From an uncultured Candidatus Saccharibacteria bacterium (lineage in GTDB: Bacteria > Patescibacteriota > Minisyncoccia > Phycocordibacterales > UBA12088), in assembly GCA_964567265.1 (NCBI GenBank), contig CAZMLK010000002.1:138813-202812 (forward strand): a stretch of 64,000 nt of DNA, read 5' to 3'. Below are positions 8,608 to 37,981 of this stretch, piece after piece. The first letter of the stretch is position 1. Each line of letters opens with the position of its first letter. The notes beneath the pieces were generated by a model, which worked only from the letters and a program-made list of their open reading frames with translations, ran no database searches and was not told the origin of the DNA. The position numbers were made by a program, and so were the translations under genes.

Positions 8608-8732
8608 ATATTGAATGATTAGGTGGCTAGTCGTGTCGTTCGTGTGGGCAGTGTATCAAATTCCGCTAATTTCGGGAATCCAAAAGAAGAATGCCCGGGC
8701 GCTGACGCGCCGGGGCACACATGCCGACATAT

Positions 8733-9392
8733 TTAGAATTCCGCCGTTCTCACCGAGCTCCGGGGACCAATGCTCGGAACCTCCTCGATCGTAGAGTACA
8801 GACAATCGATGCGGCGGATTACTTCCGCAGTGCCGACTGCCCACTGGTGAGTGACCCACCCGTCTCCTTCCCAAATCTGCATATTGCTTCCGAAGAAAGT
8901 GGGGAGGATGCGCATGTACAAAAGTGGGAGACGAGCATGATCGTGCTCTTCAGCGTACGGATTCCGCGTCCGTAGATCAAGGAAGACCACGATGCCTTCG
9001 GCGACCACCCACTTTCCGTCCACGCGCGTGTGGACCGGAGAACCCTCGATTTCCCAGGACACCGTTTGCCCGCGCTGCCTTATGCGCACGCTTGCTCGCC
9101 GCTCGAGGTTGTCGAGCGAGGCTAAGAGCGTTCCTTTGAGAATTTCAGCAGACCGGGTGGCGGTTCTCTTGAGAAGCCAGAATTTGAACCGATTTTGTAC
9201 CTGCTGTATGCCTCCGAATCGTATAGCCGCACCAATGGCCGTGGAAAATATCCCGAGAAAAAAAGCATAGTACGAGAATATGCCCCCTCCGTAGCCGATT
9301 CCGTCCCGATAGAGGGGAAAGCCGAGCAGCACGGCACCAAGAAATAAGGGTCCATAGCCAAAATCTCGTGTTTGCATCGGAAAGTCCTCCAA
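8733..9392 (-). CDS. hypothetical membrane protein
   Basis: Two N-terminal TM helices (GPLFLGAVLLGFPLY, YYAFFLGIFSTAIGAAI) then soluble domain; no recognisable motif. Confidence 0.45.
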   Translation of the reverse strand: MEDFPMQTRDFGYGPLFLGAVLLGFPLYRDGIGYGGGIFSYYAFFLGIFSTAIGAAIRFGGIQQVQNRFKFWLLKRTATRSAEILKGTLLASLDNLERRASVRIRQRGQTVSWEIEGSPVHTRVDGKWVVAEGIVVFLDLRTRNPYAEEHDHARLPLLYMRILPTFFGSNMQIWEGDGWVTHQWAVGTAEVIRRIDCLYSTIEEVPSIGPRSSVRTAEF

Positions 9393-9473
9393 CCACCGCC
9401 CCCAATAGCGGGGCCGATATCTGGTCTGAGGTGACTATACCTTCAGCGCCATTAATTTCAATAGGCAAGCTAC

Positions 9474-9504
9474 TTGACTCTGACGTTGCGTGATAGTTTA
9501 TGCT
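9474..9504 (+). promoter_or_regulatory. MerR-type promoter TTGACT-N19-TATGCT upstream of the merR/tipA-like gene
   Basis: -35 TTGACT (9474-9479), 19-nt spacer, -10 TATGCT (9499-9504); the 19-bp spacer is the hallmark of MerR-regulated promoters. Confidence 0.35.
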
Positions 9505-9561
9505 CTGGTAGGGTGAGGTCGTCACTCAATATAGGAGTATCAGCCGGAGTCTCGCATCGAC

Positions 9562-10320
9562 ATGTACTACACCGTCCAACAACTTGCTACGCTCGCGAAT
9601 ATCAGCGTGCGCACGCTCCATCACTACGATGCGATCGGGCTTTTGCGGCCCTCGCGCGAGGAGAAGAACGGCTACCGCCGCTATGGGGAGGCAGAACTCC
9701 TTCGGCTCCAGCAGATACTCTTCTTCCGAGAGCTCGATTTTCCGCTTCCGGAGATAAAAGTAATCCTTGCTTCACCCACCTTCGACATGCGGGCAGCGCT
9801 CCGGGACCAGCGGAATCTCATCGAGATCAAGAGGAAACGTCTCACCGACCTCATGCAGACGATCGACGAGACGATTACCAGACTCAATACCAACAGCAAT
9901 ATGGACGACAAGAAACTCTATGACGGGTTCGATACCGGGGAGCAGGATCAATATGCGGACGAGGTGAAAGCGCGCTGGGGCAACACCGAAGCATACAAGC
10001 AGTCCAAGGAACGGACCAAGAACTGGACCAAGGCCGACTACGATCGGCTGAAGCAGGATGCTGACACCTGGATGAAAGCATTCGTGCTTGAGGTGCCGAA
10101 AGGCGCGAAGAGCCCGGAGGTGCAGAAGATGATCGCCGAGCATTACAACGCGCTCCGCAAATTCTACGAGCCGAACCTCAAGATGTACCGCGGCCTCGCC
10201 GACATGTACGTCGATGATCCGCGTTTCAGTGCCTACTATGAGAAGTACATGCCCGGGCTCGCGCTCTTCATGCAGGAGGCGATGCATTTCTACGCGGATA
10301 CTGAGGAGGCGAAGCAATAA
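9562..10320 (+). CDS. MerR-family transcriptional regulator with TipAS-like C-terminal domain (TipA/Mta-like)
   Basis: MYYTVQQLATLANISVRTLHHYDAIGLL HTH, coiled-coil dimerisation, C-terminal TipAS-type domain. Confidence 0.85.
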   Translation: MYYTVQQLATLANISVRTLHHYDAIGLLRPSREEKNGYRRYGEAELLRLQQILFFRELDFPLPEIKVILASPTFDMRAALRDQRNLIEIKRKRLTDLMQTIDETITRLNTNSNMDDKKLYDGFDTGEQDQYADEVKARWGNTEAYKQSKERTKNWTKADYDRLKQDADTWMKAFVLEVPKGAKSPEVQKMIAEHYNALRKFYEPNLKMYRGLADMYVDDPRFSAYYEKYMPGLALFMQEAMHFYADTEEAKQ

Positions 10321-10383
10321 GCCGAAGACCCCGGCAAAACAAAAAGCCCTTCAGGGCTTTTTGTTTTGCCGGGGTCTTCGGCT
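10321..10383. terminator. long perfect inverted repeat (29-bp arms) forming a bidirectional terminator between the convergent merR-like and SET genes
   Basis: gccgaagaccccggcaaaacaaaaagccc-ttca-gggctttttgttttgccggggtcttcggc. Confidence 0.6.
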
Positions 10384-10774
10384 ACCGATAGTACGCCGCC
10401 TTCTCGTCTTCCGGCTCTTCGAGCGAGTTGTAGTCGATCAGGATTTCCTCGTCAGCCGCGATGTCGCGTGCAGCGAAATAGAGGAAGTCCGTATGGATCG
10501 CATTCGGCTCTTTCGAATGGTTCAGATACCAGCCGATCTGCATCTTGCCGAAATCCATCGGGCAGTGGAGCTCATTACCTTCGATGATGCAGTGCTGGAT
10601 GAATGATTCCGGGATATCGCTCCGCTTCAAGATGCGTACTTCCTCGCCCGCGTCGGCATGATCGCCGAAGAGTCGGAGCGGAGCGCCCTTTGCGATTGCA
10701 TGGGTCGCGAAGACGCCGACGCCGTGAGCGCCGGGCCTGAGGACGAATGAGAATTCAGTGGTCGTTGTTTCCAT
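10382..10774 (-). CDS. SET-domain protein (putative protein-lysine methyltransferase)
   Basis: GWYLNHSKEPN matches the NHSCxPN SET motif; EEILIDY matches the EELxxDY post-SET motif; 130 aa. Confidence 0.65.
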   Translation of the reverse strand: METTTTEFSFVLRPGAHGVGVFATHAIAKGAPLRLFGDHADAGEEVRILKRSDIPESFIQHCIIEGNELHCPMDFGKMQIGWYLNHSKEPNAIHTDFLYFAARDIAADEEILIDYNSLEEPEDEKAAYYR

Positions 10775-10843
10775 GAGGTCAGTATATACAATCCCCCGCC
10801 GTTTTTGCTTCGCAAAAACGGCGGGGGATTGTATTTCCTCTAA

Positions 10844-11410
10844 CTATCGAATCCCGCTGTCACACGAGATATGCGCCTCGGTCGCTTGTCCTGCGGTGAC
10901 GGTTATCATCACATCCATGCAACTCGGAAGCACTTCAGCAGCTATGGGGTGGAGCGTGTATGCGCCTGGGGCGAGCGATACCATGAACCTGCCGGACTTG
11001 TCGCTTTTCACGGTCCCTGCGAGTACCATCGACTCCTGCCGATATATCTCAATTGTGGTGGAGTACGGCCGCGGCGCGCAGCCTGGCTCCGGCGGCACCC
11101 TCTCGACAGGGCATGTCGGCGAGACATCGACAAGACCGGTCACATCGCCCTTGGCGACGGTGCTGCCGATGCGGCCGGTAGTGCCTGCGGAGGTGCCAGG
11201 GCACTCAGCAAAGCTGCAGTTCGGGCCCGTGCGTCCAACGGAGCTTCCATCGGGGCATATCTTCGCATCAGCATCGCAGACCTGGCCGCCGATTACGTCC
11301 GGTCCGGGTGCCATCGCGTGACGGACGCTCGCACCATAGAGGGCGAAGATGCCGACACAGAAGAGAAGGAGTCCCGATACGATGATGCCGAATAAATGCT
11401 TGTGGTTCAT
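10844..11410 (-). CDS. secreted/anchored protein with N-terminal Cys4 module (C-x6-C-x12-C-x4-C) and C-terminal beta-sandwich (carboxypeptidase-regulatory/Cna-B-like) region; paralog B
   Basis: Signal-anchor LFGIIVSGLLLFCVGIFALYGA; motif CDADAKICPDGSSVGRTGPNCSFAECPG; later GTVKSDKSGRFMVSLAPGAYTL. Confidence 0.65.
   Translation of the reverse strand: MNHKHLFGIIVSGLLLFCVGIFALYGASVRHAMAPGPDVIGGQVCDADAKICPDGSSVGRTGPNCSFAECPGTSAGTTGRIGSTVAKGDVTGLVDVSPTCPVERVPPEPGCAPRPYSTTIEIYRQESMVLAGTVKSDKSGRFMVSLAPGAYTLHPIAAEVLPSCMDVMITVTAGQATEAHISCDSGIR
11196..11290. repeat. nucleotide-level repeat copy 1 (encodes the Cys4 module of paralog B)
   Basis: 32-nt exact identity (cactcagcaaagctgcagttcgggcccgtgcg, 11202-11233) with 11453-11484, about 80% identity over roughly 95 nt; third diverged copy at 18086-18180. 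Confidence 0.7.
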
Positions 11411-11682
11411 TGGATTTCGATTGATCCTTCAACGGCGGCGCCAGCTCCCGGACACTCAGCAAAGCTGCAGTTCGGGCCCGTGCGGCTTACATAACTTCCA
11501 TCCGGGCACTGCTTCGCGTCCTGTGTACAGATCTGACCGCCCGTGAATTCCTCGGGACCATTTCCTATCCCGCGATTTACCTTTGCCGCATAGAGCGCGA
11601 GGACGCCGACCCCGAAGAGAAGGAGGCCGACCACGATCATGATAAAGAGTGAATGAGGCTTCATGCGGGTCATACGATTCAA
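11407..11682 (-). CDS. small (91 aa) secreted/anchored Cys4-module protein; paralog A
   Basis: Signal-anchor then CTQDAKQCPDGSYVSRTGPNCSFAECPG; 4-nt overlap (ATGA) with the downstream paralog B. Confidence 0.6.
   Translation of the reverse strand: MNRMTRMKPHSLFIMIVVGLLLFGVGVLALYAAKVNRGIGNGPEEFTGGQICTQDAKQCPDGSYVSRTGPNCSFAECPGAGAAVEGSIEIQ
11447..11541. repeat. nucleotide-level repeat copy 2 (Cys4 module of paralog A)
   Basis: See copy 1. Confidence 0.7.
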
Positions 11683-11684
11683 GA

Positions 11685-12074
11685 TTACGAAATAAGGGTA
11701 CTAAAATATCCCTGCGAGAAATATGCACCTGCGAGGCCGACAATGACCGCGACGACGAAGTACGCGAAACTCTTGAGAGTCCGGACCGACGACAGCTGCC
11801 TGACGACCATGCCCCCCAAGGGAGCAAGGATGATGTACGGGGCCGCCATTGTCGCGAATCCGTATGCCGCCATCTGTCCGCCATTATAGCCTGAGAGCTT
11901 GATAATTTCCCCGGCCAGCTTCGATCCATACTCGAGGACCTCCTTCGGGCCGAAGAAGAGCATGAGACCGGCAACGAATCCGAACGCGATATTGATAATG
12001 ATGCTGAGCAGGTTAGTTTCATCCGGAGACGCGAACGCATTCGGCATCATGGGGTTCATCTGGAACGGGTCCAT
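11685..12074 (-). CDS. small hypothetical membrane protein (3 predicted TM helices)
   Basis: Hydrophobic segments IINIAFGFVAGLMLFF, AAYGFATMAAPYIILAPLGGMVV, YFVVAVIVGLAGAYF. Confidence 0.5.
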   Translation of the reverse strand: MDPFQMNPMMPNAFASPDETNLLSIIINIAFGFVAGLMLFFGPKEVLEYGSKLAGEIIKLSGYNGGQMAAYGFATMAAPYIILAPLGGMVVRQLSSVRTLKSFAYFVVAVIVGLAGAYFSQGYFSTLIS

Positions 12075-12175
12075 ATAGGTAGAGTATATTGGCGAACCAC
12101 TGTTTCAGGAACAGGCGTTATGCACCGAGAGGGGGAGCATTGCATGCGCACCCGTTCGGCATATACTGTCGGCAT

Positions 12176-12526
12176 ATGGAAACAAACACACAGATGGTGC
12201 CGCACAACATGGTGACGACAGGCTTCGAGCTCCCGGAGCACAAGGTCATTAAGAACCTCGGGATGACGCGGGGGATTGTCGTCCGCTCGCGCTCGATCAT
12301 CGGCTCGATCGGTGCCGGCCTCCAGACCATCCTCGGCGGAGACATCACCCTCTTTACCAGTCTCTGCGAGAAGACGCGCGAGGATGCGTACAATCTCATG
12401 CTCCAGCATGCTGCTGCAATGGGCGCGAACGCGGTCATCGCGGCCCGCTATGACGCCACCGAGCTCGGCGGCGGCATCACCGAAGTCCTCGCGTACGGCA
12501 CGGCAGTTGTTGTGGAGTCGAAATAG
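12176..12526 (+). CDS. YbjQ/UPF0145 family protein
   Basis: [86 protein letters not shown] is the typical YbjQ fold sequence; start trimmed to METNT. Confidence 0.75.
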
Positions 12527-12539
12527 TTTCCGTACGTTT

Positions 12540-12583
12540 GAAACGGCAGAAGCCCGCGCGTGAGCACGGGCTTCTGCCGTTTC
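12540..12583. terminator. hairpin gaaacggcagaagcccg...cgggcttctgccgtttc after ybjQ
   Basis: 17-bp stem. Confidence 0.5.
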
Positions 12584-12602
12584 AACACATCCAAAATAGA
12601 AA

Positions 12603-12628
12603 GCCCCGGATGCGTGCGCATCCGGGGC
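12603..12628 (-). terminator. hairpin gccccggatgcgtgcgcatccggggc with T-run on the minus strand, downstream of ORF 12646-13326
   Basis: 10-bp GC stem, preceded on the plus strand by aaaataga. Confidence 0.5.
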
Positions 12629-12645
12629 CACTTCACGATCTCGAT

Positions 12646-13326
12646 TCAGCTTCCAGTGCGGACGGTTCTCCCGCCATCGATCACTTGAAGTTGAGTGGAA
12701 CTATTCGGCGCGAGTAGTTGGTTATAGAGACTCTCCAGAGCCGCAATCGCCTTCGGGTAGGTGGGATACTCGCTCCAGCTCTTCCCGTCCCAGATCCACC
12801 ACGTACGTCTTTCCGAAATGGTGCTCGAGTTAAGCGGGAGCACTTGCACCCGGATCAATTCCTGCGCCCTCTGAAGAGGATCGCCGTTGCTGTTTCCGGG
12901 GTCCGGCACCTTGTAGGTGAGGGAGATACGGAACTCTTCACCTTGGAGCCACTGCCTGGTACTGCTCCGGCGGTCGAGTAGTGCGACGGGGATGCCGACG
13001 CACTTCAAGTGGATTGATGTCGAATGGGGGAAGTTGGCCTCCCATCGTTTCTCGACTCCCCTGGAGAAATCGACCAAGGCTTCCTCAAGAAGTACCGCGG
13101 TCCGTTTCGCCGCATATGATCGTTTGAAATACCCGAAGGTGTTTCGGAACATCCGGGCCCACTTGGGGTACGTGGCACTAGCGAGCGACATGCCAGCCAA
13201 TGTCCAGGTGTGCCAAGTAAAGCCACCTGACCAGGTCCACTTGGCGGTAGAGGCGAAGAGAAACCCAAGCAGGATTGAACCCATGATGTAGGCATTCTGC
13301 TCAACCCAGTCACGCAGAGCGTCCAT
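12646..13326 (-). CDS. hypothetical protein with N-terminal TM/signal
   Basis: ILLGFLFASTA hydrophobic start, Trp-rich; no recognisable motif. Confidence 0.5.
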   Translation of the reverse strand: MDALRDWVEQNAYIMGSILLGFLFASTAKWTWSGGFTWHTWTLAGMSLASATYPKWARMFRNTFGYFKRSYAAKRTAVLLEEALVDFSRGVEKRWEANFPHSTSIHLKCVGIPVALLDRRSSTRQWLQGEEFRISLTYKVPDPGNSNGDPLQRAQELIRVQVLPLNSSTISERRTWWIWDGKSWSEYPTYPKAIAALESLYNQLLAPNSSTQLQVIDGGRTVRTGS

Positions 13327-13385
13327 TCACATTCCTCCAGTCGGGCCGACCTCACCACGAGGTGGCGTCTGAATCTGTCAGGATT

Positions 13386-13410
13386 TTGACATATTCCTAA
13401 GAAATGTCAA
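13386..13410. promoter_or_regulatory. perfect palindrome TTGACAT-N11-ATGTCAA in the promoter region of ORF 12646-13326
   Basis: 7-bp inverted half-sites, each containing a TTGACA -35-like hexamer. Confidence 0.3.
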
Positions 13411-13422
13411 ATAGTCGGAGCT

Positions 13423-13944
13423 TTACGGCACGTAGATTTCCTCGATCTTCGTCACGATGTTCCCTTGGACCGTGAGGTGGTAGGGAAGGGTGTTCCAGTG
13501 GAGGGACTTGTCGTCGATGAGCTTGGCGAATGCCGCAATGTCGATCTCGTGCGGAGCGACACCCTTGGTCTCCATGTCCAAGGTCTGCATGATGACTTTC
13601 GCAGACGGGCTGGTCTCATAGAGAAGCGGGGTCGAGGTCGACGGGTTGTCGATGAAGTAGTCATTCGGGAGGCATTCATCGCGTGTTTCCTCGGTACAGA
13701 CGCCGGCCCGGATCGCCGCATCCTCGCCCGCCTTGCCCGAAAGCCACTCGGCTTCATCAAACGCGATCCGGACATCCTTCGAGGTATCAACGTAGCGGAT
13801 GAATCCGAGCGTCGTGGTCGCGCTCTCAGTGTCCTCAGGAGTCGGCACCTCAGCCTGCTGCTTGAGAGTGTTCGCATACCAAAACCCAGCTCCAGCGATG
13901 CAGAGGATGAAAAGCGAAGCAGATAGAAAAAAGCGTTTAGACAT
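13423..13944 (-). CDS. hypothetical secreted protein
   Basis: Signal peptide MSKRFFLSASLFILCIAGAGFWYA; the ATG sits inside the terminator hairpin of the upstream gene; ORF-track TTG start at 13950 is also possible. Confidence 0.5.
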   Translation of the reverse strand: MSKRFFLSASLFILCIAGAGFWYANTLKQQAEVPTPEDTESATTTLGFIRYVDTSKDVRIAFDEAEWLSGKAGEDAAIRAGVCTEETRDECLPNDYFIDNPSTSTPLLYETSPSAKVIMQTLDMETKGVAPHEIDIAAFAKLIDDKSLHWNTLPYHLTVQGNIVTKIEEIYVP

Positions 13945-13964
13945 GTACAAAGTCTAAACGCTTT
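13930..13964 (-). terminator. 13-bp perfect hairpin aaagcgtttagac-atgtacaaa-gtctaaacgcttt followed by T6 on the minus strand
   Basis: Terminates ORF 13986-14624; its loop and left arm overlap the start codon of ORF 13423-13944. Confidence 0.55.
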
Positions 13965-13985
13965 TCCAAAGACTGGCTATAGATT

Positions 13986-14624
13986 CTAATCAAGCAATTT
14001 GAAGCTTTTCCAGATCCGATCAAGATCTGCCATCGGAATTCCGCGTGTCGTTATGCGGTAAAAATATCCTTTCCAAATGAAAAGTGTTGTGCGCTCCTCA
14101 TCTTGCTCAGCCACGGTATGTACGGGATCTTTGGACATGTCGAACTTCCTCGTCAACGCAGGAACGCCAGAAACGGTCGTCTGCCCGATAAGATAATTTT
14201 CTTCATTGCCAACCCAGTGGTGGTATTCATCCGACAGTGATCCAGTCGCTGCTTGGGAGTTTACGGTAAGGATCCTCTCCTTCCCGGTCATATCATTTGC
14301 AATGAGCGCATAGGATGTATATTGATTCGGGTCGCCTTCGCCTACTAACATGCCGGAGGGGCGAAATTCCATATCGGAAGGCGCGTCAACGGAAAAGTGA
14401 AGAAAGTCATTTTTGTAGCGAACCCATTCACTAGAGAGCTGGGTGGATGACCCAGTGAATGATGTCGGAAGTTCATCTGCGCGTAATGTCCGACTTCCTT
14501 GCATACTCACACTCTGTGGAGCCTTACCAGAGTTCATTTTTGCAGCGAAATAAATAATACCCCCTGCGATAACGAGGGCCCCGAGAAAAATAAATGTAGC
14601 GACGCTGAGGTTTGATTTTTTCAT
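13986..14624 (-). CDS. hypothetical N-terminally anchored protein (low-GC island gene 1)
   Basis: MKKSNLSVATFIFLGALVIAGGIIYFAA anchor; about 45% GC versus about 60% background. Confidence 0.5.
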   Translation of the reverse strand: MKKSNLSVATFIFLGALVIAGGIIYFAAKMNSGKAPQSVSMQGSRTLRADELPTSFTGSSTQLSSEWVRYKNDFLHFSVDAPSDMEFRPSGMLVGEGDPNQYTSYALIANDMTGKERILTVNSQAATGSLSDEYHHWVGNEENYLIGQTTVSGVPALTRKFDMSKDPVHTVAEQDEERTTLFIWKGYFYRITTRGIPMADLDRIWKSFKLLD

Positions 14625-14692
14625 GTGGATGCAATGATAGCAATAAGAAATTTTGGATTTAAAAAAAGTAGTTGCCCTATCTTACATGGAAC

Positions 14693-15553
14693 TTAATGCA
14701 ATTCGACATGTCCAAATGGTGATTTTTCCACTCTAACGCAAGGCAATGTCTGGGCAATTTCGTTGATCGTTTCCAATTGCGCTTGGCTCTTGGATGGGGG
14801 CCATGCTCCCTCAATCGACAATGCCCATTCACCCACATCCTCCAAAACATAAGTGTAAGTCACTATTTTTGCACCTCGTTTCTCGTGGATGATGATGGTT
14901 TGCGTCGTAACCTCTTTGATGGAGTCAACCAACTGCTGAACGACCTCACTGCGTGCATCTGGTGGAATTTCAAAAATAATGCTTGGCGCGTCAGCAGTTG
15001 TTGCTCGGTCGTAGTAGGAAGTCACTACTGCAATATTCCTTGAGTCAATTTTCTTACTGGTGATTGATTTCCAGATTGCAATAATTATTCCGTCTCGCAC
15101 TATTTCCCACATTGCTGAATCTATATCAGCTTGAATGTGAGCAATGGCCCAGTCTTTTATAGGAATGAGTATTGTTATGGCGTGGGAAGCGAAGTCCACC
15201 AGACCTATCATTTCTGCGCTCACCCCTCCTCCATATCCATGGGTATGCCAATTTAGCTCGTATTGATACTTCCCATCTATGTGTTCTTTGGCATGCTCAA
15301 CAGCCGCATCATCCACAATTGTCACCTCCAACCCCGTTTGTTTTGAGGTCAATTCAGAGACTAAGGGTGTAAGTAGGGAGTTCTCGATTTTTATGCGAAG
15401 TTTCAAGTCCCCGTTGCCAATAATGTTCTGGGCCGATTCTCTTGCCGCCTCAAGTTCTGCGTAATATTTTTGTGAAAAATCAAACACTCTAGCAGATTTT
15501 CGCTGTTCTAGGATACGGAGTAAAAAATTTTCGAGTTGTTCAAAAATTCGCAT
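14693..15553 (-). CDS. hypothetical cytoplasmic protein (low-GC island gene 2), contains NWHTHGYGGG motif
   Basis: 286 aa, no TM, no recognisable family; lower GC than surroundings. Confidence 0.5.
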   Translation of the reverse strand: MRIFEQLENFLLRILEQRKSARVFDFSQKYYAELEAARESAQNIIGNGDLKLRIKIENSLLTPLVSELTSKQTGLEVTIVDDAAVEHAKEHIDGKYQYELNWHTHGYGGGVSAEMIGLVDFASHAITILIPIKDWAIAHIQADIDSAMWEIVRDGIIIAIWKSITSKKIDSRNIAVVTSYYDRATTADAPSIIFEIPPDARSEVVQQLVDSIKEVTTQTIIIHEKRGAKIVTYTYVLEDVGEWALSIEGAWPPSKSQAQLETINEIAQTLPCVRVEKSPFGHVELH

Positions 15554-15594
15554 ATATTCGTAAACAGGCCTCCTTGCGGAAGCCTGTTTCTTTT

Positions 15595-16746
15595 CTACTC
15601 TTCTTTTTTGTCAGCTTTGCCTTCGAGGATTTCAAACACTTTCTCGTTACGCATGATGGTTTCGACGTACATGCGGACCGAGTCGGGGTTTGCTTCCTTG
15701 TAGTGCTCGAGGACGTGGTTCACGTCGCGGGCGACCTTGTCCTCAGGGAGGAGGATGGTCTCCTTCTCGCTGATCGCGTTCAGGATGAGCTGGAGCTTGG
15801 CGCGCTTCTCGGCTTCTGGCTCCCATTCCTTGCGGATGTCCTCAGGCGATTTGCCGAGGTGCTGGAAGTAGGTTTCCGGCTCGACGCCCATGCGCTCGAT
15901 CTCGGAGCGGAACTCGCCCATCATCTTGTCGAGCTCTGAGTCCTTGAGGATCTTCGGGAGGGCGATCGTTGCTTTCTCGACGAGCGCTTCGACGATGGCG
16001 AGGCGACGCTTCTCCTTTTCCTTCATTTCTTTCTCGGATTTGATGTTCTCACCAATCTTGGTGCGGAACTCGGCGACGGTGCCGAATGAGCCGAGCTTCT
16101 GGACGAACGCGTCGTCGAGCGCAGGAAGGTCCTCGTCCTTGATGTCGCTGCCGTCGTGCGCGCCGTGTTCGCCGGCTTCGTGACCTTCTTCGTCCTCATG
16201 CGCGTGATGCTGCTCGTAGTGCGCCATGCGGCGGCGGATGGCGAGAATGGCCTCATCCACTTCTGCTTCGGTTGGGTCGGCGACCGTGCTCTCCATCTTC
16301 TTCACGATCTTCTCGGAGATTGCCTTGTAGTCGGGGAGCTCGAAGGTCGGGACGACCGCCGTTTTCGCGACGAAGGAGACGGGGTTGCCGCGCGCGAGCT
16401 TGGTGATCGAGATATGCGGCCGGCCGATCACATCGAGCTCGTTGTCGATGATGATCGCGGGATACACGTCGGCGAGCGCTCGCTCGGCCATTTCTTCCAT
16501 GATCGCCATCTCGCCCACCTGCTTCACGAGCACCTCCTCAGGAACATGTCCTTTGCGGAAGCCGTCGATCTCTACCCGCTCGCTGACATACTTCACGGCC
16601 GCCTTCCGGTAGCTGTTGATGACTTCGACCGGGATATCGCCGCGGATTTCAAGCTCTGACTGCTCGAGCTTGATGATCTCGAGGTTGGTATATGGCTGAT
16701 TTCCTGGCTTCTTTACTTCGTTTGTTTCCTCGTGTGAGTCTTGCAT
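15595..16746 (-). CDS. tig: trigger factor lacking the PPIase domain (His/Glu-rich linker instead)
   Basis: Ribosome-binding signature GFRKGHVP in the N-domain, TF C-terminal chaperone domain; middle region HYEQHHAHEDEEGHEAGEHGAHDGSD replaces the FKBP domain. Confidence 0.8.
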   Translation of the reverse strand: MQDSHEETNEVKKPGNQPYTNLEIIKLEQSELEIRGDIPVEVINSYRKAAVKYVSERVEIDGFRKGHVPEEVLVKQVGEMAIMEEMAERALADVYPAIIIDNELDVIGRPHISITKLARGNPVSFVAKTAVVPTFELPDYKAISEKIVKKMESTVADPTEAEVDEAILAIRRRMAHYEQHHAHEDEEGHEAGEHGAHDGSDIKDEDLPALDDAFVQKLGSFGTVAEFRTKIGENIKSEKEMKEKEKRRLAIVEALVEKATIALPKILKDSELDKMMGEFRSEIERMGVEPETYFQHLGKSPEDIRKEWEPEAEKRAKLQLILNAISEKETILLPEDKVARDVNHVLEHYKEANPDSVRMYVETIMRNEKVFEILEGKADKKEE

Positions 16747-16828
16747 AGGCCCGACTATAGCAGAAAAACCACGCGCCCGTCCATGTGTGGACGGGCGCGT
16801 GGTTTTCGTCTATTTCAGGTCGTGGACA

Positions 16829-17269
16829 CTAGTTCCCGGACGTAGTATTGACTCCCTGCATGTCGCCATCGAGCGATTCGACATTGGTTGCGTTCAAGTC
16901 TGCTTCGATCGATGAGGTCTCGTCTGACGAGCTCTGCGTTTGAAGGGCTTTCACTGCCGGATCCTCTGAAGCGCCATTGCTGGTGCTGGTCGGCGGCGTC
17001 TGCGCCTTCTGATCTGGGACCGCACTGTTCTGCTCGTCGGAGAGCATCTGCTGGTTGAGGCGCATGCCCCAATAGTAGAGGCCTCCGATCGCGACCAGTG
17101 CGACGATGATGATCGCGCCGATCATCTGGCCGACGCTCGAGGAACCTTTCGGTGCCTCTGGAGGGGCGGCAGGCGGGACCATCATGTTCGGCACGCTGGT
17201 CGCCGGGGCAGGGGTTGGCGCTGCGGGAGCCGGAGCTACTCCTGGGGCGGAAGGCGTTTGTTCGTCCAT
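16829..17269 (-). CDS. hypothetical membrane protein with Pro/Ala-rich N-terminus
   Basis: APAPAAPTPAPATS low complexity, one TM (IGAIIIVALVAIGGLYYW), Ser/Thr-rich tail. Confidence 0.45.
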   Translation of the reverse strand: MDEQTPSAPGVAPAPAAPTPAPATSVPNMMVPPAAPPEAPKGSSSVGQMIGAIIIVALVAIGGLYYWGMRLNQQMLSDEQNSAVPDQKAQTPPTSTSNGASEDPAVKALQTQSSSDETSSIEADLNATNVESLDGDMQGVNTTSGN

Positions 17270-17295
17270 AGCGGATGTTTTACGGATTTTTAATA

Positions 17296-18285
17296 CTATT
17301 CACCGGCATGCTCACCCTCATTGCTCTCCCTAGTCGTCGTCGCGGTCGGAGCTTTTTTCTTCGGTTCGAACGTTTTGAGGAGTCGGACGGCAGCTTCGAG
17401 CTCGCTCTGCGCTGTCTTCAGGTTCCCCTTGATGCTCTCGACAAGGTCGCGCACCTTCGAGAACTCGCCTTCAGGATCATCGGATGCAATCACGGTGGCG
17501 AAAGTCGTCTTGATGTTCCCGATGCTCGACTGTGCTGCCGCAAGCGCTGCGCGGGCAGTGATGACATGGGACTTCGCTTCCCCGACATCCTTGCCGTCGG
17601 CTTCAAGCTTCGCGATCCGTGAATCGATACGGTCTGCGATCTTGAGGAGGCGGCCGTACGCGACATCGAGGCGCGCGGCGACATGGCTCACTTCATCGGC
17701 AACCTTCGCCTTTATGCGCTCCCTTGTCGACGACGCGATCTTCTGCCACATCTCCTGGCGCTTCTCGCGAAGCTCATCGAGCGGTCCGCCGTTCCCCTTC
17801 ATCTGGCCAGGGAATACTGCTGGCCGCGTGCCGGTCGCCATGCCCGGCTTGGTCGTTGAGGCCATGCGCATGCGCATCTCCTTCTCGCGCATTTCCATCA
17901 TATTTGAAGCCGTCGTTGATGCTTGGATCTTCTTCAACATCTCTGGGGTCGGCTTCTGGAGCGGACGATTCGTCGTTGACCCTTCTGATCCCCTTGCCGG
18001 CGGCATCGGAGGCGGGGGTACGTCGCCCTCAACATGGTCTCCGCCAGTCCGTGCTCCCGTCGGAGGCTTCGCGGTGGCCGCTCCCGGACACTTCGCGAAT
18101 TCGCAGTGCGGGCCGGTGCGTCCGACGGCGCTGCCGTCTGGACACATCTTCGCTTCCGCGGTACAGATTACGCCGGCACTCGCGTCGGCGTCCGCCGTCT
18201 CGTCAGCAAGCGCGAACGATACGCCGAACAAAAAAACAAATCCAATGGACAGGAAAGTACTGCCCAGTACGCGCATTCTCGTCAT
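17296..18285 (-). CDS. secreted Cys4-module protein with long coiled-coil/Met-rich C-terminal region; paralog C
   Basis: Signal peptide, then CTAEAKMCPDGSAVGRTGPHCEFAKCPG, then Pro-rich spacer and alpha-helical heptad region. Confidence 0.6.
   Translation of the reverse strand: MTRMRVLGSTFLSIGFVFLFGVSFALADETADADASAGVICTAEAKMCPDGSAVGRTGPHCEFAKCPGAATAKPPTGARTGGDHVEGDVPPPPMPPARGSEGSTTNRPLQKPTPEMLKKIQASTTASNMMEMREKEMRMRMASTTKPGMATGTRPAVFPGQMKGNGGPLDELREKRQEMWQKIASSTRERIKAKVADEVSHVAARLDVAYGRLLKIADRIDSRIAKLEADGKDVGEAKSHVITARAALAAAQSSIGNIKTTFATVIASDDPEGEFSKVRDLVESIKGNLKTAQSELEAAVRLLKTFEPKKKAPTATTTRESNEGEHAGE
18086..18180. repeat. nucleotide-level repeat copy 3 (Cys4 module of paralog C), more diverged
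   Basis: gcagtgcgggccggtgcgtccgacggcgctgccgtctggacacatcttcgc aligns with copies 1 and 2. Confidence 0.55.
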
Positions 18286-18414
18286 AGCTATTACCTTAGT
18301 AGTAAGAATCTTCTCAGAGATTGAAAAGATCGGGAACCAGTGGTGTTGTATGTAGTATACAAACGAGCGCTCGCATATGCGAGCGCTCGTTTGTTGATAA
18401 CTCAGGGGTTTCGC

Positions 18415-18939
18415 CTACTTCGCGAACTTCTCGTTGTAAAGCTCGAGGCTCTTCTCGAAGTCCTTCTTTGCGTCAGCGGCGCCGCGGAAGCCCTTTACCT
18501 CCACTTCCTTGTTCTGGAGCTTCTTGTAGGTCGAGAAGAAGTGCTCGATTTCCTTGAGGGTGTGCTTGTTGATGTCGGAAAGGTCCTTCACATCGCTCCA
18601 CCGTGGGTCTTTGACCGGCACGGCGATTATCTTGTTGTCGGATTCGCCGTCATCCACCATGTCCATGACTGCGACTGGCCGGACGCGGACCAGGATGCCG
18701 GGCGCGAGCGGGTAGGTCGTGAGGACGAGCGCGTCGAGCGCATCCTCGTCGTACCAGTACGACTGCGGAATGAAGCCATAATCGAACGGATAGTCCTGGG
18801 AAGTATGCATCGCGCGGTCGAGGGCGATCAAGCCCGTTTCCTTGTCGATCTCGTACTTGTTCTTCGAGCCCTTCGGGATCTCGATGATGACATTCATCTC
18901 GTCAGCCGTTCCCGGCTTCACATCGTGCCAATAGTTCAT
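18415..18939 (-). CDS. ppa: inorganic pyrophosphatase (family I)
   Basis: YPFDYGFIPQSY..DGDALDALVL..., 174 aa. Confidence 0.9.
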   Translation of the reverse strand: MNYWHDVKPGTADEMNVIIEIPKGSKNKYEIDKETGLIALDRAMHTSQDYPFDYGFIPQSYWYDEDALDALVLTTYPLAPGILVRVRPVAVMDMVDDGESDNKIIAVPVKDPRWSDVKDLSDINKHTLKEIEHFFSTYKKLQNKEVEVKGFRGAADAKKDFEKSLELYNEKFAK

Positions 18940-19002
18940 AGTTCTAGTCTTTAAGTGCTTAGTCTGTAGTCTATAACCAGTCCTTTGGAGGAGAAAGGGG
19001 GA

Positions 19003-20193
19003 TTACTCCTCGGTTTTCTCTGCTGCTGCCTCCTCAGTCGCGGCTTCTGCCGGCGCTTCCGGGGCGGCTTCCTCTTCCGAAGCTTCATCTGCGGCTACGG
19101 TCGGCGCTTTTGCGGAGTGGATGTCGATCTTCCAGCCGGTCAGCTTTGCGGCGAGGCGGACATTCTGTCCGGCCTTGCCGATCGCGAGAGACTGCTGGTC
19201 TTCCGCGACCTCGACGAGCGCGCGGTGCGCGCCGTCGTCGATGACGACATTCATGACCTTTGCAGGGGAGAGTGCGTCCTCGACGAACTGCTTCTGGTTC
19301 TCAGACCACTCGATGATGTCGATCTTCTCGCCACCGAGCTCGCTCATGACGGTCGAGACGCGCACTCCGCGCTGGCCGACGAGGGAACCGACTGGGTCGA
19401 TGTGGGTATCGGTCGACGCGACGGCGATCTTGGAGCGGCTTCCCGGCTCGCGGGCGATCGCCTTCACGACGACGGTGCCGGAAACGAGCTCAGGCGCCTC
19501 GAATTCGAAGAGCTTCTCGAGGAATTTCGGGTGTGAGCGTGAAAGGCGGAGGAAGACGCCGCGTGGTCCTTCCTCGACATTGTAGAGGTAAGCGCGGAGG
19601 CGCTCTCCCTGGCGGAATCGCTCGCCGGGGATCTGTTCGTCATACGGGAGGATGCCGGTCGCGCGGCCAAGGTCGATGTAGATGTTGCCGCGCTCGATGC
19701 GCTGGACCGAACCGCTCACGATATCGCCTTCGCGCTCGCCGAATTCGTTGAGCACGGAGACCTTTTCCGCTTCGCGGATCTTCTGGATGATGACCTGCTT
19801 GGCAGTCTGGGCGGCGATGCGTCCAAAATCATCCTGCGGCTCGAGCGGGAAGACGATCTCGTCGTCGAGCTCGGCGCCTTTCTTGATGCGGCGTGCATCC
19901 TCGAGGAGGATGTGGTGTTCCGGGTTGAAGCGGACGCGCTCGTCGTCTTCCGGAGCGTCTTCCTCGTCCATGCGGACCTGGGTATCATCAACGACCAGCT
20001 TTACCTGGTAGAACTCGGTCGAACCGGTGCCAATGTCGAACTTGGCACGCACGATCTGGCCGCGCTTGCCGAATTCCTTGCGGTACGCGGTCGCGAGCGA
20101 CTGCTCGATCGCCTCGATGACTTTCGCGCGGGGGATGCCGCGCTCTTCCTCGAGCTGGTCGAGGACGGAATTGATTACTTTGAGATCAAACAT
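19003..20193 (-). CDS. nusA: transcription termination/antitermination factor NusA
   Basis: NusA N-domain, S1 and tandem KH domains (IDPVGSLVGQRGVRVSTV...), acidic C-terminal tail. Confidence 0.9.
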   Translation of the reverse strand: MFDLKVINSVLDQLEEERGIPRAKVIEAIEQSLATAYRKEFGKRGQIVRAKFDIGTGSTEFYQVKLVVDDTQVRMDEEDAPEDDERVRFNPEHHILLEDARRIKKGAELDDEIVFPLEPQDDFGRIAAQTAKQVIIQKIREAEKVSVLNEFGEREGDIVSGSVQRIERGNIYIDLGRATGILPYDEQIPGERFRQGERLRAYLYNVEEGPRGVFLRLSRSHPKFLEKLFEFEAPELVSGTVVVKAIAREPGSRSKIAVASTDTHIDPVGSLVGQRGVRVSTVMSELGGEKIDIIEWSENQKQFVEDALSPAKVMNVVIDDGAHRALVEVAEDQQSLAIGKAGQNVRLAAKLTGWKIDIHSAKAPTVAADEASEEEAAPEAPAEAATEEAAAEKTEE

Positions 20194-37556: not shown

Positions 37557-37598
37557 GGACGGGTTTGGTTAGCTGGTCTCGAAAAGTATACACCAAAG

Positions 37599-37628
37599 AA
37601 AAAAGCCAGGGTCCGGGTGGACCCTGGC
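37599..37628 (-). repeat. hairpin repeat copy 1 (gccagggtccgggtggaccctggc preceded by A6), reads as an intrinsic terminator on the minus strand
   Basis: 24/24 identity with 37814-37837 except one loop base; flanking similarity extends to ...gggaggc. Confidence 0.6.
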
Positions 37629-37745
37629 AAGTAAGATCAGGGAGGCTAAACGTCTGGGAGGAGATAAGCACGCGGCAATGCGTGTGCCCCAAGTCATGTG
37701 AATGACCAGGTGGGCTTGAAGCCCAGGAACCGCAAGTCCACTGAC
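37600..37745 (-). ncRNA. candidate small RNA (about 140 nt) with its own promoter TTGACA-N17-TACAAA (37749-37777, minus strand) and terminator (copy-1 hairpin)
   Basis: No protein-like ORF; internal hairpins (GACAC...GUGUC; CACGC...GCGUG); bracketed by promoter and terminator; class unknown. Confidence 0.3.
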
Positions 37746-37807
37746 ACCTTTGTACCAGTGTCTTGGAATGCTGTCAATGCCGCGTGAGTGAGGGGTGCGG
37801 GGGAAAT

Positions 37808-37837
37808 GAAAAAGCCAGGGTCCGGAGGGACCCTGGC
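37808..37837 (-). repeat. hairpin repeat copy 2 (gccagggtccggagggaccctggc)
   Basis: See copy 1. Confidence 0.6.
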
Positions 37838-37981
37838 AGTCAGTCGAGGAACTGGGAGGCACGATTACCATAGCAGTCTTCATGATATTTTGTCAATTAA
37901 CCAGGCGTTTTTACAGGTAATCCACATGACAGGCCAAGCGATTCCTAGAGCGGAAACGGGGCCATGGTACCATTTCCAGAT

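Follow-up and report, generated by a model that had tools for sequence, protein, structure and literature searches.

Gene conversion and concerted evolution are known from several sets of bacterial paralogs, including the tufA/tufB genes, the rRNA operons and the pilE/pilS genes of Neisseria, in which short tracts are exchanged. In systems of the pilE/pilS or vlsE type, one expression locus is accompanied by several silent, promoterless partial cassettes. A tract of 32 nt is short and lies near the lower limit for RecA-type exchange. As for the protein motifs relevant here, zinc ribbons and fingers are built from two CxxC (or CPxC) knuckles and usually belong to cytoplasmic proteins, Pacifastin_I (PF05375) is characterised by a six-Cys pattern, and the CarboxypepD_reg/transthyretin-like fold is a seven-stranded beta-sandwich.

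The locus described here lies in a 64-kb stretch of DNA, which was analysed as a whole and is called the window below. It contains two adjacent genes, A and B, that share a perfect 32-nt tract within a Cys4 module. With moderate confidence, this tract is interpreted as a short gene-conversion tract that formed in the lineage of the window, on top of an old partial duplication.

Genes A and B and their neighbours

A and B are small surface proteins of a bacterium of the candidate-phyla-radiation (CPR) type, encoded by co-oriented and probably translationally coupled tandem paralogs. Gene A (10844..11410, minus strand) encodes 188 amino acids; it consists of an N-terminal membrane anchor (helix 3-32), a linker, a Cys4 module (residues 45-71) and a C-terminal beta-sandwich (residues 88-184). 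Gene B (11407..11673, minus strand) encodes 88 amino acids if translation starts at the ATG at 11673, or 85 if it starts at the ATG at 11664, and has a membrane anchor and a linker, followed by the Cys4 module and a tail of 12 residues. A third module-containing gene, C (17296..18285, minus strand; 329 amino acids), carries a signal peptide and the Cys4 module ahead of a long low-complexity/helical region. In all three proteins, an N-terminal hydrophobic anchor or signal segment is followed by the pattern C-x6-CPDGSxVxRxGPxCxFxxCP.

The stop codon of B (TGA) overlaps the start codon of A (ATG) in the tetranucleotide ATGA at 11407-11410, which suggests translational coupling; in L001, the contig that carries orthologues of both genes (B' and A'; see below), the two are 11 nt apart rather than overlapping. 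Upstream of B and co-oriented with it lies a gene for a 129-amino-acid membrane protein (11685..12074, minus strand), which is syntenic in L001 and has no Pfam hit. A hairpin with 28-nt arms (93% complementary) is located at 10781..10839, between the stop of gene A (10844) and the start of a SET gene (10774). The hairpin is terminator-like and probably marks the end of a transcription unit, and the membrane-protein gene, B and A probably constitute a single such unit. The locus is flanked by ordinary neighbours, namely genes for a SET-domain protein, a TipAS/MerR regulator and a YbjQ-family protein. Other structured elements were seen in the window as well. A perfect inverted repeat (10320-10383, with 31-nt arms and a 2-nt spacer) is situated between the convergent TipAS/MerR (ending at 10320) and SET-domain (ending at 10382) genes and is probably a bidirectional terminator. 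A GC-rich, hairpin-containing 35-nt element is found at 37595-37629 and 37804-37838 (209 nt apart, 89% identity), with a weaker copy at 8683-8717.

The C-terminal domain of A (residues 88-184) was modelled by AF2 as a beta-sandwich with a pLDDT above 90. Foldseek matched this domain to the GBS52 pilin, CnaB2 and the transthyretin-like domain of carboxypeptidase D, with E values of 3e-5 to 3e-3 and TM scores of approximately 0.3-0.4 when normalised to the full-length query. In Pfam, A scored 17.7 bits against CarboxypepD_reg, under the curated cut-off of 32.3. The members of the A family (170-190 amino acids; Kaiserbacteria/Patescibacteria) share the invariant motifs CPVE..PP.P.C and, at the C-terminus, CD[ST]GIR. 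A CnaB/pilin/transthyretin-like sandwich at the C-terminus fits the role of A as a surface protein.

Origin of gene B

On the sequence-only reading, A and B resemble each other in the module and are otherwise unrelated. On the 5' side, this is wrong: residues 1-85 of B align with residues 1-82 of A, anchor included, and because only about 12 residues follow the module in B, B aligns to A over its full length. With the module excluded, the anchor and linker of the two proteins are identical at 22/45 residues (49%; E 2e-11). The 5' 135 nt of the genes, which encode the anchor and linker, are likewise homologous; aligned at an offset of 254, they have 70/111 nt in common.

The single close relative that a protein search with B brought up (68% identity) lies on L001, which belongs to the independent assembly GCA_020050275.1. 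The gene order on this contig (membrane-protein gene, B', A') is the same as in the window. The pair of membrane-protein neighbours was used to calibrate the divergence between the window and L001: the proteins are 83% identical, and 54.5% of their same-residue codons are identical. The latter value indicates that the two genomes are far apart. More distant orthologues of A (approx. 45% identity), some of which carry the label Kaiserbacteria or Patescibacteria, retain the anchor, the module and the beta-sandwich, and the architecture of A is widespread. In two genome contexts of such distant orthologues (L002 and L004), no B gene is adjacent and the anchors are dissimilar to that of A. The homology over the whole length of B, the synteny in L001 and the lack of B at L002 and L004 together indicate that B is clade-specific and derives from a partial duplication, which took in the 5' end of A and pre-dates the split between the window and L001. 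Judged by sequence, then, B is an old and not a recent partial duplicate, comprising the start codon, anchor, linker and module. The B' ORF is intact and 25/26 of its module residues match those of B; from this sequence conservation, B appears to be functional rather than decaying. Proteins composed only of an anchor and a module are common elsewhere.

The same data bear on two further explanations for the likeness of A and B. The first, which had been the main reading of the sequence alone, is that two genes with nothing else in common came to share the module only recently, through its duplication or shuffling as a cassette. In its favour, the module occurs beside Kunitz, Hint, PG_binding_1, META and CarboxypepD_reg-like domains and in up to 10-11 tandem copies, and adjacent repeats are near-identical in DNA in some other genomes (e.g., 74/78 nt in L127). 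For A and B themselves, however, this explanation is very unlikely: they share the whole N-terminal region, the pair is older than the L001 split, A and B have diverged by 40% in the 5' half of the module (with orthology grouping at 8 informative sites vs 1), and dS is saturated outside the tract. A recent duplication had also been proposed, and this fails on the presence of the B-A pair in L001 and on the synonymous sites outside the tract, which have diverged to saturation level. Nor was the event confined to the module as an N-terminal cassette, as the duplicated unit in this pair included the start codon, anchor and linker in addition to the module. What survives of the shuffling proposal concerns a deep evolutionary scale, on which the module is found with many unrelated neighbour domains and in up to 10-11 tandem copies; such promiscuity belongs to a separate time-scale and rests on evidence separate from that of the A/B pair.

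The second explanation is an artefact of metagenome assembly, which would have created a false tandem duplication or merged strain variants into a chimera. The window is apparently metagenome-assembled, and identical proteins are recorded only once. Nevertheless, an artefact is extremely improbable, given that the independent assembly has the same B-A order with diverged sequence and that the copies differ at 69/219 aligned sites (31%), meaning that they are not collapsed or duplicated reads.

The shared 32-nt tract

The tract occupies 11202..11233 (minus strand) in A, where it runs, in the numbering of A, from codon 60 to codon 69 (R T G P N C S F A E) and on through the first two bases of Cys70, and 11453..11484 (minus strand) in B, in direct orientation and 251 nt from the A copy. 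The exact match had been noticed from the sequence and is indeed present; no exact direct repeat in the 64-kb window is longer. No further copies with <=3 mismatches were found within the window, and shuffled sequences gave no match. Mismatches at 11201 and 11234 delimit the tract, which spans just the 3' 40% of the module.

The module itself is located at 11198..11278 in A (CDADAKICPDGSSVGRTGPNCSFAECP), at 11449..11529 in B (CTQDAKQCPDGSYVSRTGPNCSFAECP) and at 18085..18165 in C (CTAEAKMCPDGSAVGRTGPHCEFAKCP), on the minus strand in each case. The identity between the A and B copies, previously put at roughly 80% over about 95 nt, is 73/95 (77%) for 11196-11290 vs 11447-11541, and the ungapped core alone reaches 61/74 (82%). 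The third copy, described as more diverged, is real: at 18085-18165, it is identical to A at 67/95 nt (70.5%), and its longest exact DNA match is 8 nt to A and 6 nt to B. Beyond the module, gene C has no relation to A or B. Since the proteins B and C both start with MTRM (11664-11673 and 18274-18285), a 5' cassette shared by these two genes was considered; it was rejected because the two genes have unrelated DNA both at the start and upstream of it, and the common start is probably a coincidence.

Whether the proteins alone could account for the tract was assessed with codon usage taken from 68 long ORFs of the window, by simulating synonymous codons for the two fixed protein sequences. At the 47 same-residue positions, 27 codons are identical vs 18.7 expected under saturation (P 0.008). 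The excess resides entirely in one run of ten codons, R-T-G-P-N-C-S-F-A-E, in which 10/10 are identical, among them the rare codons GCT (12% usage), AGC (20%) and TTT (24%). Outside the run, 17/37 same-residue codons are identical vs approx. 14.8 expected, which equals saturation. Conditional on both proteins, the probability of a longest exact match of at least 32 nt is 1.5e-4 under saturation; when a uniform codon identity of 46%, 54.5% or 57.4% is assumed, it becomes 0.001, 0.005 or 0.009, respectively. In an empirical control, 127 module copies from 111 loci of other genomes gave 7,979 between-genome pairs, with 37% codon identity at identical residues. On average, the longest exact match in these pairs measured 8.2 nt; the 99.9th percentile was 23 nt, and 32 nt or more were reached with a frequency of 1.25e-4 (1/7,979). 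As between-genome pairs almost never reach 32 nt, the tract exceeds what protein conservation would lead one to expect. In estimates of dS by NG86, A-B had the lowest value of six pairs (0.93), and the orthologues were saturated. The low A-B value is mostly put down to the strong codon bias of the window, because codon identity outside the run is at expectation. A wider conversion over the whole N-terminal region, to which this lowest dS might point, was rejected on the same ground, codon identity outside the run being that predicted from codon bias.

The comparison with L001 rests on a codon alignment of A, A', B and B', i.e., on a single outgroup locus in which A' is truncated. In codons 61-70 (30 nt), A and B do not differ (0), whereas A-A' differ at 7 sites, B-B' at 3 and A-B' at 3. 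The picture is different in the 45 nt immediately upstream, with 18 differences for A-B, 7 for A-A', 10 for B-B' and 18 for A-B'. Outside the run, parsimony-informative sites group the sequences by orthology in 19 cases, by paralogy in 7 and across in 3; inside it, the corresponding numbers are 0, 2 and 0, from only 2 sites. The edge codons differ between A and B (codon 60, GGA vs AGC; codon 71, TGC vs TGT) and group by orthology (GGA/GGA vs AGC/AGT and TGC/TGC vs TGT/TGT). Owing to this grouping of the flanking codons, the exchanged segment can be limited to at most 32-33 nt. The tract is thus identical between the paralogs at synonymous as well as other sites and is bounded by synonymously diverged flanks, which is the pattern by which gene conversion is recognised. 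Collection scans for additional relatives yielded none: A-specific peptide patterns matched nothing in genome and metagenome contigs, and a degenerate DNA pattern for the clade-specific variant GPNCSFAECP matched one unrelated protein in metagenomes.

It is also conceivable that no conversion took place and that the run consists by chance of retained or coincident codons, at a place where 13 consecutive residues are invariant, with purifying selection and codon bias contributing. A Sawyer-type permutation on the 120 polymorphic sites of the four sequences was borderline for A-B (p = 0.055; longest run, 8 sites) and gave a similar result for A-A'. In addition, 6/10 tract codons are the preferred codon of the genome, codon identity shows no excess outside the run, and three of the ten codons of the run (AAC, AGC and TTT) do not vary among the four sequences, so that part of the run may be a retained ancestral state. 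These observations notwithstanding, a chance run is considered rather unlikely. Conditioned on the proteins, the 32-nt match has a probability of 1.5e-4 to 0.009; over the same 30 nt, orthologues that split later show 7 and 3 differences; the rare codon GCT is common to both paralogs; and only one of the 7,979 between-genome module pairs attains this length.

Another possibility is that the 32-nt sequence has been kept for a function at the nucleotide level, such as an mRNA structure, the target of a regulatory RNA or a protein-binding site. The exact identity, which extends to rare codons, would agree with such a role, as would the two 6-bp palindromes in the tract, GGGCCC and CTGCAG. The palindromes, however, result directly from the codons for T-G-P and N-C-S. 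Moreover, the tract is not kept in L001 (3 and 7 substitutions, all but two of them synonymous), the third copy in the same genome (in C) differs, and an Rfam scan of 9000-20000 matched no family. A nucleotide-level function is accordingly judged to have little likelihood.

Gene conversion within the lineage of the window remains the preferred reading, and the earlier proposal of ongoing or recent conversion is moderately supported in that the tract is perfect, its edges differ and the paralogs are identical where the orthologues differ by 7 and 3 nt. The following course of events may be envisaged. In an ancestor common to the lineage of the window and the organism of L001, a tandem duplication that took in only the 5' end of A would have given rise to B. 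The copies would then have diverged to saturation at synonymous sites. Across the module, nucleotide identity is held at approx. 75% by strong purifying selection on the peptide, as is shown by comparison with thousands of unrelated copies. Finally, in a non-reciprocal gene conversion, no more than 32-33 nt of the 3' part of one paralog's module would have been replaced by those of the other. This exchange is placed in the lineage of the window, after the split from L001. That B was the donor is mildly favoured, as the tract in A differs from B at 0 sites and from B' at 3, but from A' at 7. The direction is only weakly indicated, since two of the five sites in the tract at which A' alone differs stem from a derived Thr-to-Ser change in A'. 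Homogenisation of paralogs, as proposed here, is an ordinary phenomenon; it would imply that tandem genes for surface proteins recombine with each other in a reduced, uncultured lineage. In-frame deletions or B::A fusions could also arise through the 32-nt direct repeat.

The Cys4 module and known systems

The module, of about 27 amino acids, has the consensus C-x6-CPDGSxVxRxGPxCxFxxC and the spacing C-x6-C-x12-C-x4-C. A 35-position profile made from the three copies in the window was searched against cluster representatives (50% identity) and matched 8,670 representative proteins at E <= 1e-3 and 3,212 at E <= 1e-10, with up to 10-11 copies each. A degenerate DNA pattern for the module was found in at least 120 species genomes; among the matches listed, most are Patescibacteria (Paceibacterota, Saccharibacteria, Kaiserbacteria and others), DPANN archaea are present too (Nano-, Micr-, Woese- and Aenigmatarchaeota), and a minority are MAGs labelled Proteobacteria, Myxococcota or others. 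Pfam-A and NCBIfam scans of A, B, C and multi-copy proteins, even those with ten copies, returned no model for the module. A sequence search of the PDB with the module gave no match, Foldseek with a 37-amino-acid model of it nothing significant, and literature searches on the CPDGS motif or on cysteine-rich surface proteins of Patescibacteria nothing relevant. The precomputed tags PF27300 (YdcA) and PF27023 (6BHPP), attached to some module hits, were dismissed as faint and leave the module unexplained. What is worth recording is a very large Cys4 module family of CPR/DPANN surface proteins that is absent from the libraries searched.

An N-terminal hydrophobic segment was present in 212/246 module proteins examined, and the first module starts at a median residue of 47. 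Among the domains that accompany the module are Kunitz, pacifastin-like, Hint, PG_binding_1, META and CarboxypepD_reg-like domains. By its sequence context, the module is almost certainly extracytoplasmic and displayed just outside the membrane. AlphaFold models of the module contain three short strands, with a moderate confidence (pLDDT 70-88). The C-x6-C/C-x4-C spacing and the extracytoplasmic location speak for two disulfides and against a zinc site, and the module, as modelled, is presumably a three-strand mini-domain stapled by two disulfides. Close similarity in DNA between copies was also seen elsewhere: in L127, the module copies at 2056-2133 and 2161-2238 match at 74/78 nt, with a 39-nt exact match, and in L038 those at 1431 and 2869 share a 26-nt exact match. 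Duplication or homogenisation of adjacent module copies may be recurrent in the family.

Tentatively, a broader view can be formulated, in which the module is an undescribed and very abundant extracytoplasmic mini-domain, typical of the ultra-small episymbiotic Patescibacteria/CPR and DPANN and spanning the boundary between bacteria and archaea; it would be used as a single knob (as in B) or in 10-11 tandem copies, and neighbouring copies would be kept alike by short-tract recombination. If this is true, the module could be a key surface module, for attachment, redox or metal handling, that has been missed by curation. It is among the most conserved and widespread short motifs in predicted CPR/DPANN surface proteins. 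Defining the module family would allow thousands of 'hypothetical' proteins to be better annotated and would provide an experimental handle on the episymbiont cell surface.

Several described systems resemble parts of this locus. The modelled beta-sandwich of A resembles the CarboxypepD_reg/CnaB/transthyretin-like domains in fold, and differs from them in its sub-cut-off Pfam score and in its own invariant motifs. For the module, a Cys4 zinc ribbon was considered and rejected on account of the C-x6-C ... C-x4-C spacing, the anchor or signal that precedes the module in 212/246 proteins, and the lack of a zinc-ribbon Pfam hit. Like pacifastin (PF05375), Kunitz (PF00014) and EGF-like domains, the module is short, Cys-rich, extracytoplasmic, found in tandem and joined to secreted domains, and some proteins combine it with Kunitz and pacifastin-like segments. 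Unlike these domains, it has four Cys in the arrangement C-x6-C-x12-C-x4-C and is without a Pfam, NCBIfam or PDB relative. Pacifastin_I itself was discarded as an identity for the module: it scored 16-20 bits, vs a cut-off of 27.9, and did so on an upstream segment (CN.C.C...G..C) of some multi-domain proteins rather than on the module. The Pfam scan gave no Pacifastin_I hits in A, B or C.

With regard to the tract, programmed cassette variation was rejected as a model, as just three copies of the module occur in the window, all of them part of complete ORFs that have a start codon and an anchor of their own, and the search allowing <=3 mismatches revealed no additional copies of the tract there. 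Unlike pilE/pilS, A and B are without a bank of silent cassettes or a sign of programmed variation. They also differ from tufA/tufB, the rRNA operons and pilE/pilS in that the tract is just 32 nt long and only two copies, both expressed, take part, and from established cases of paralog conversion in that the evidence comes from one outgroup. In other respects, the locus resembles converted bacterial paralogs: the A/B tract is identical at the nucleotide level between diverged flanks, A and B are closer to each other within it than to their orthologues, and the repeats are direct and close together (251 nt).
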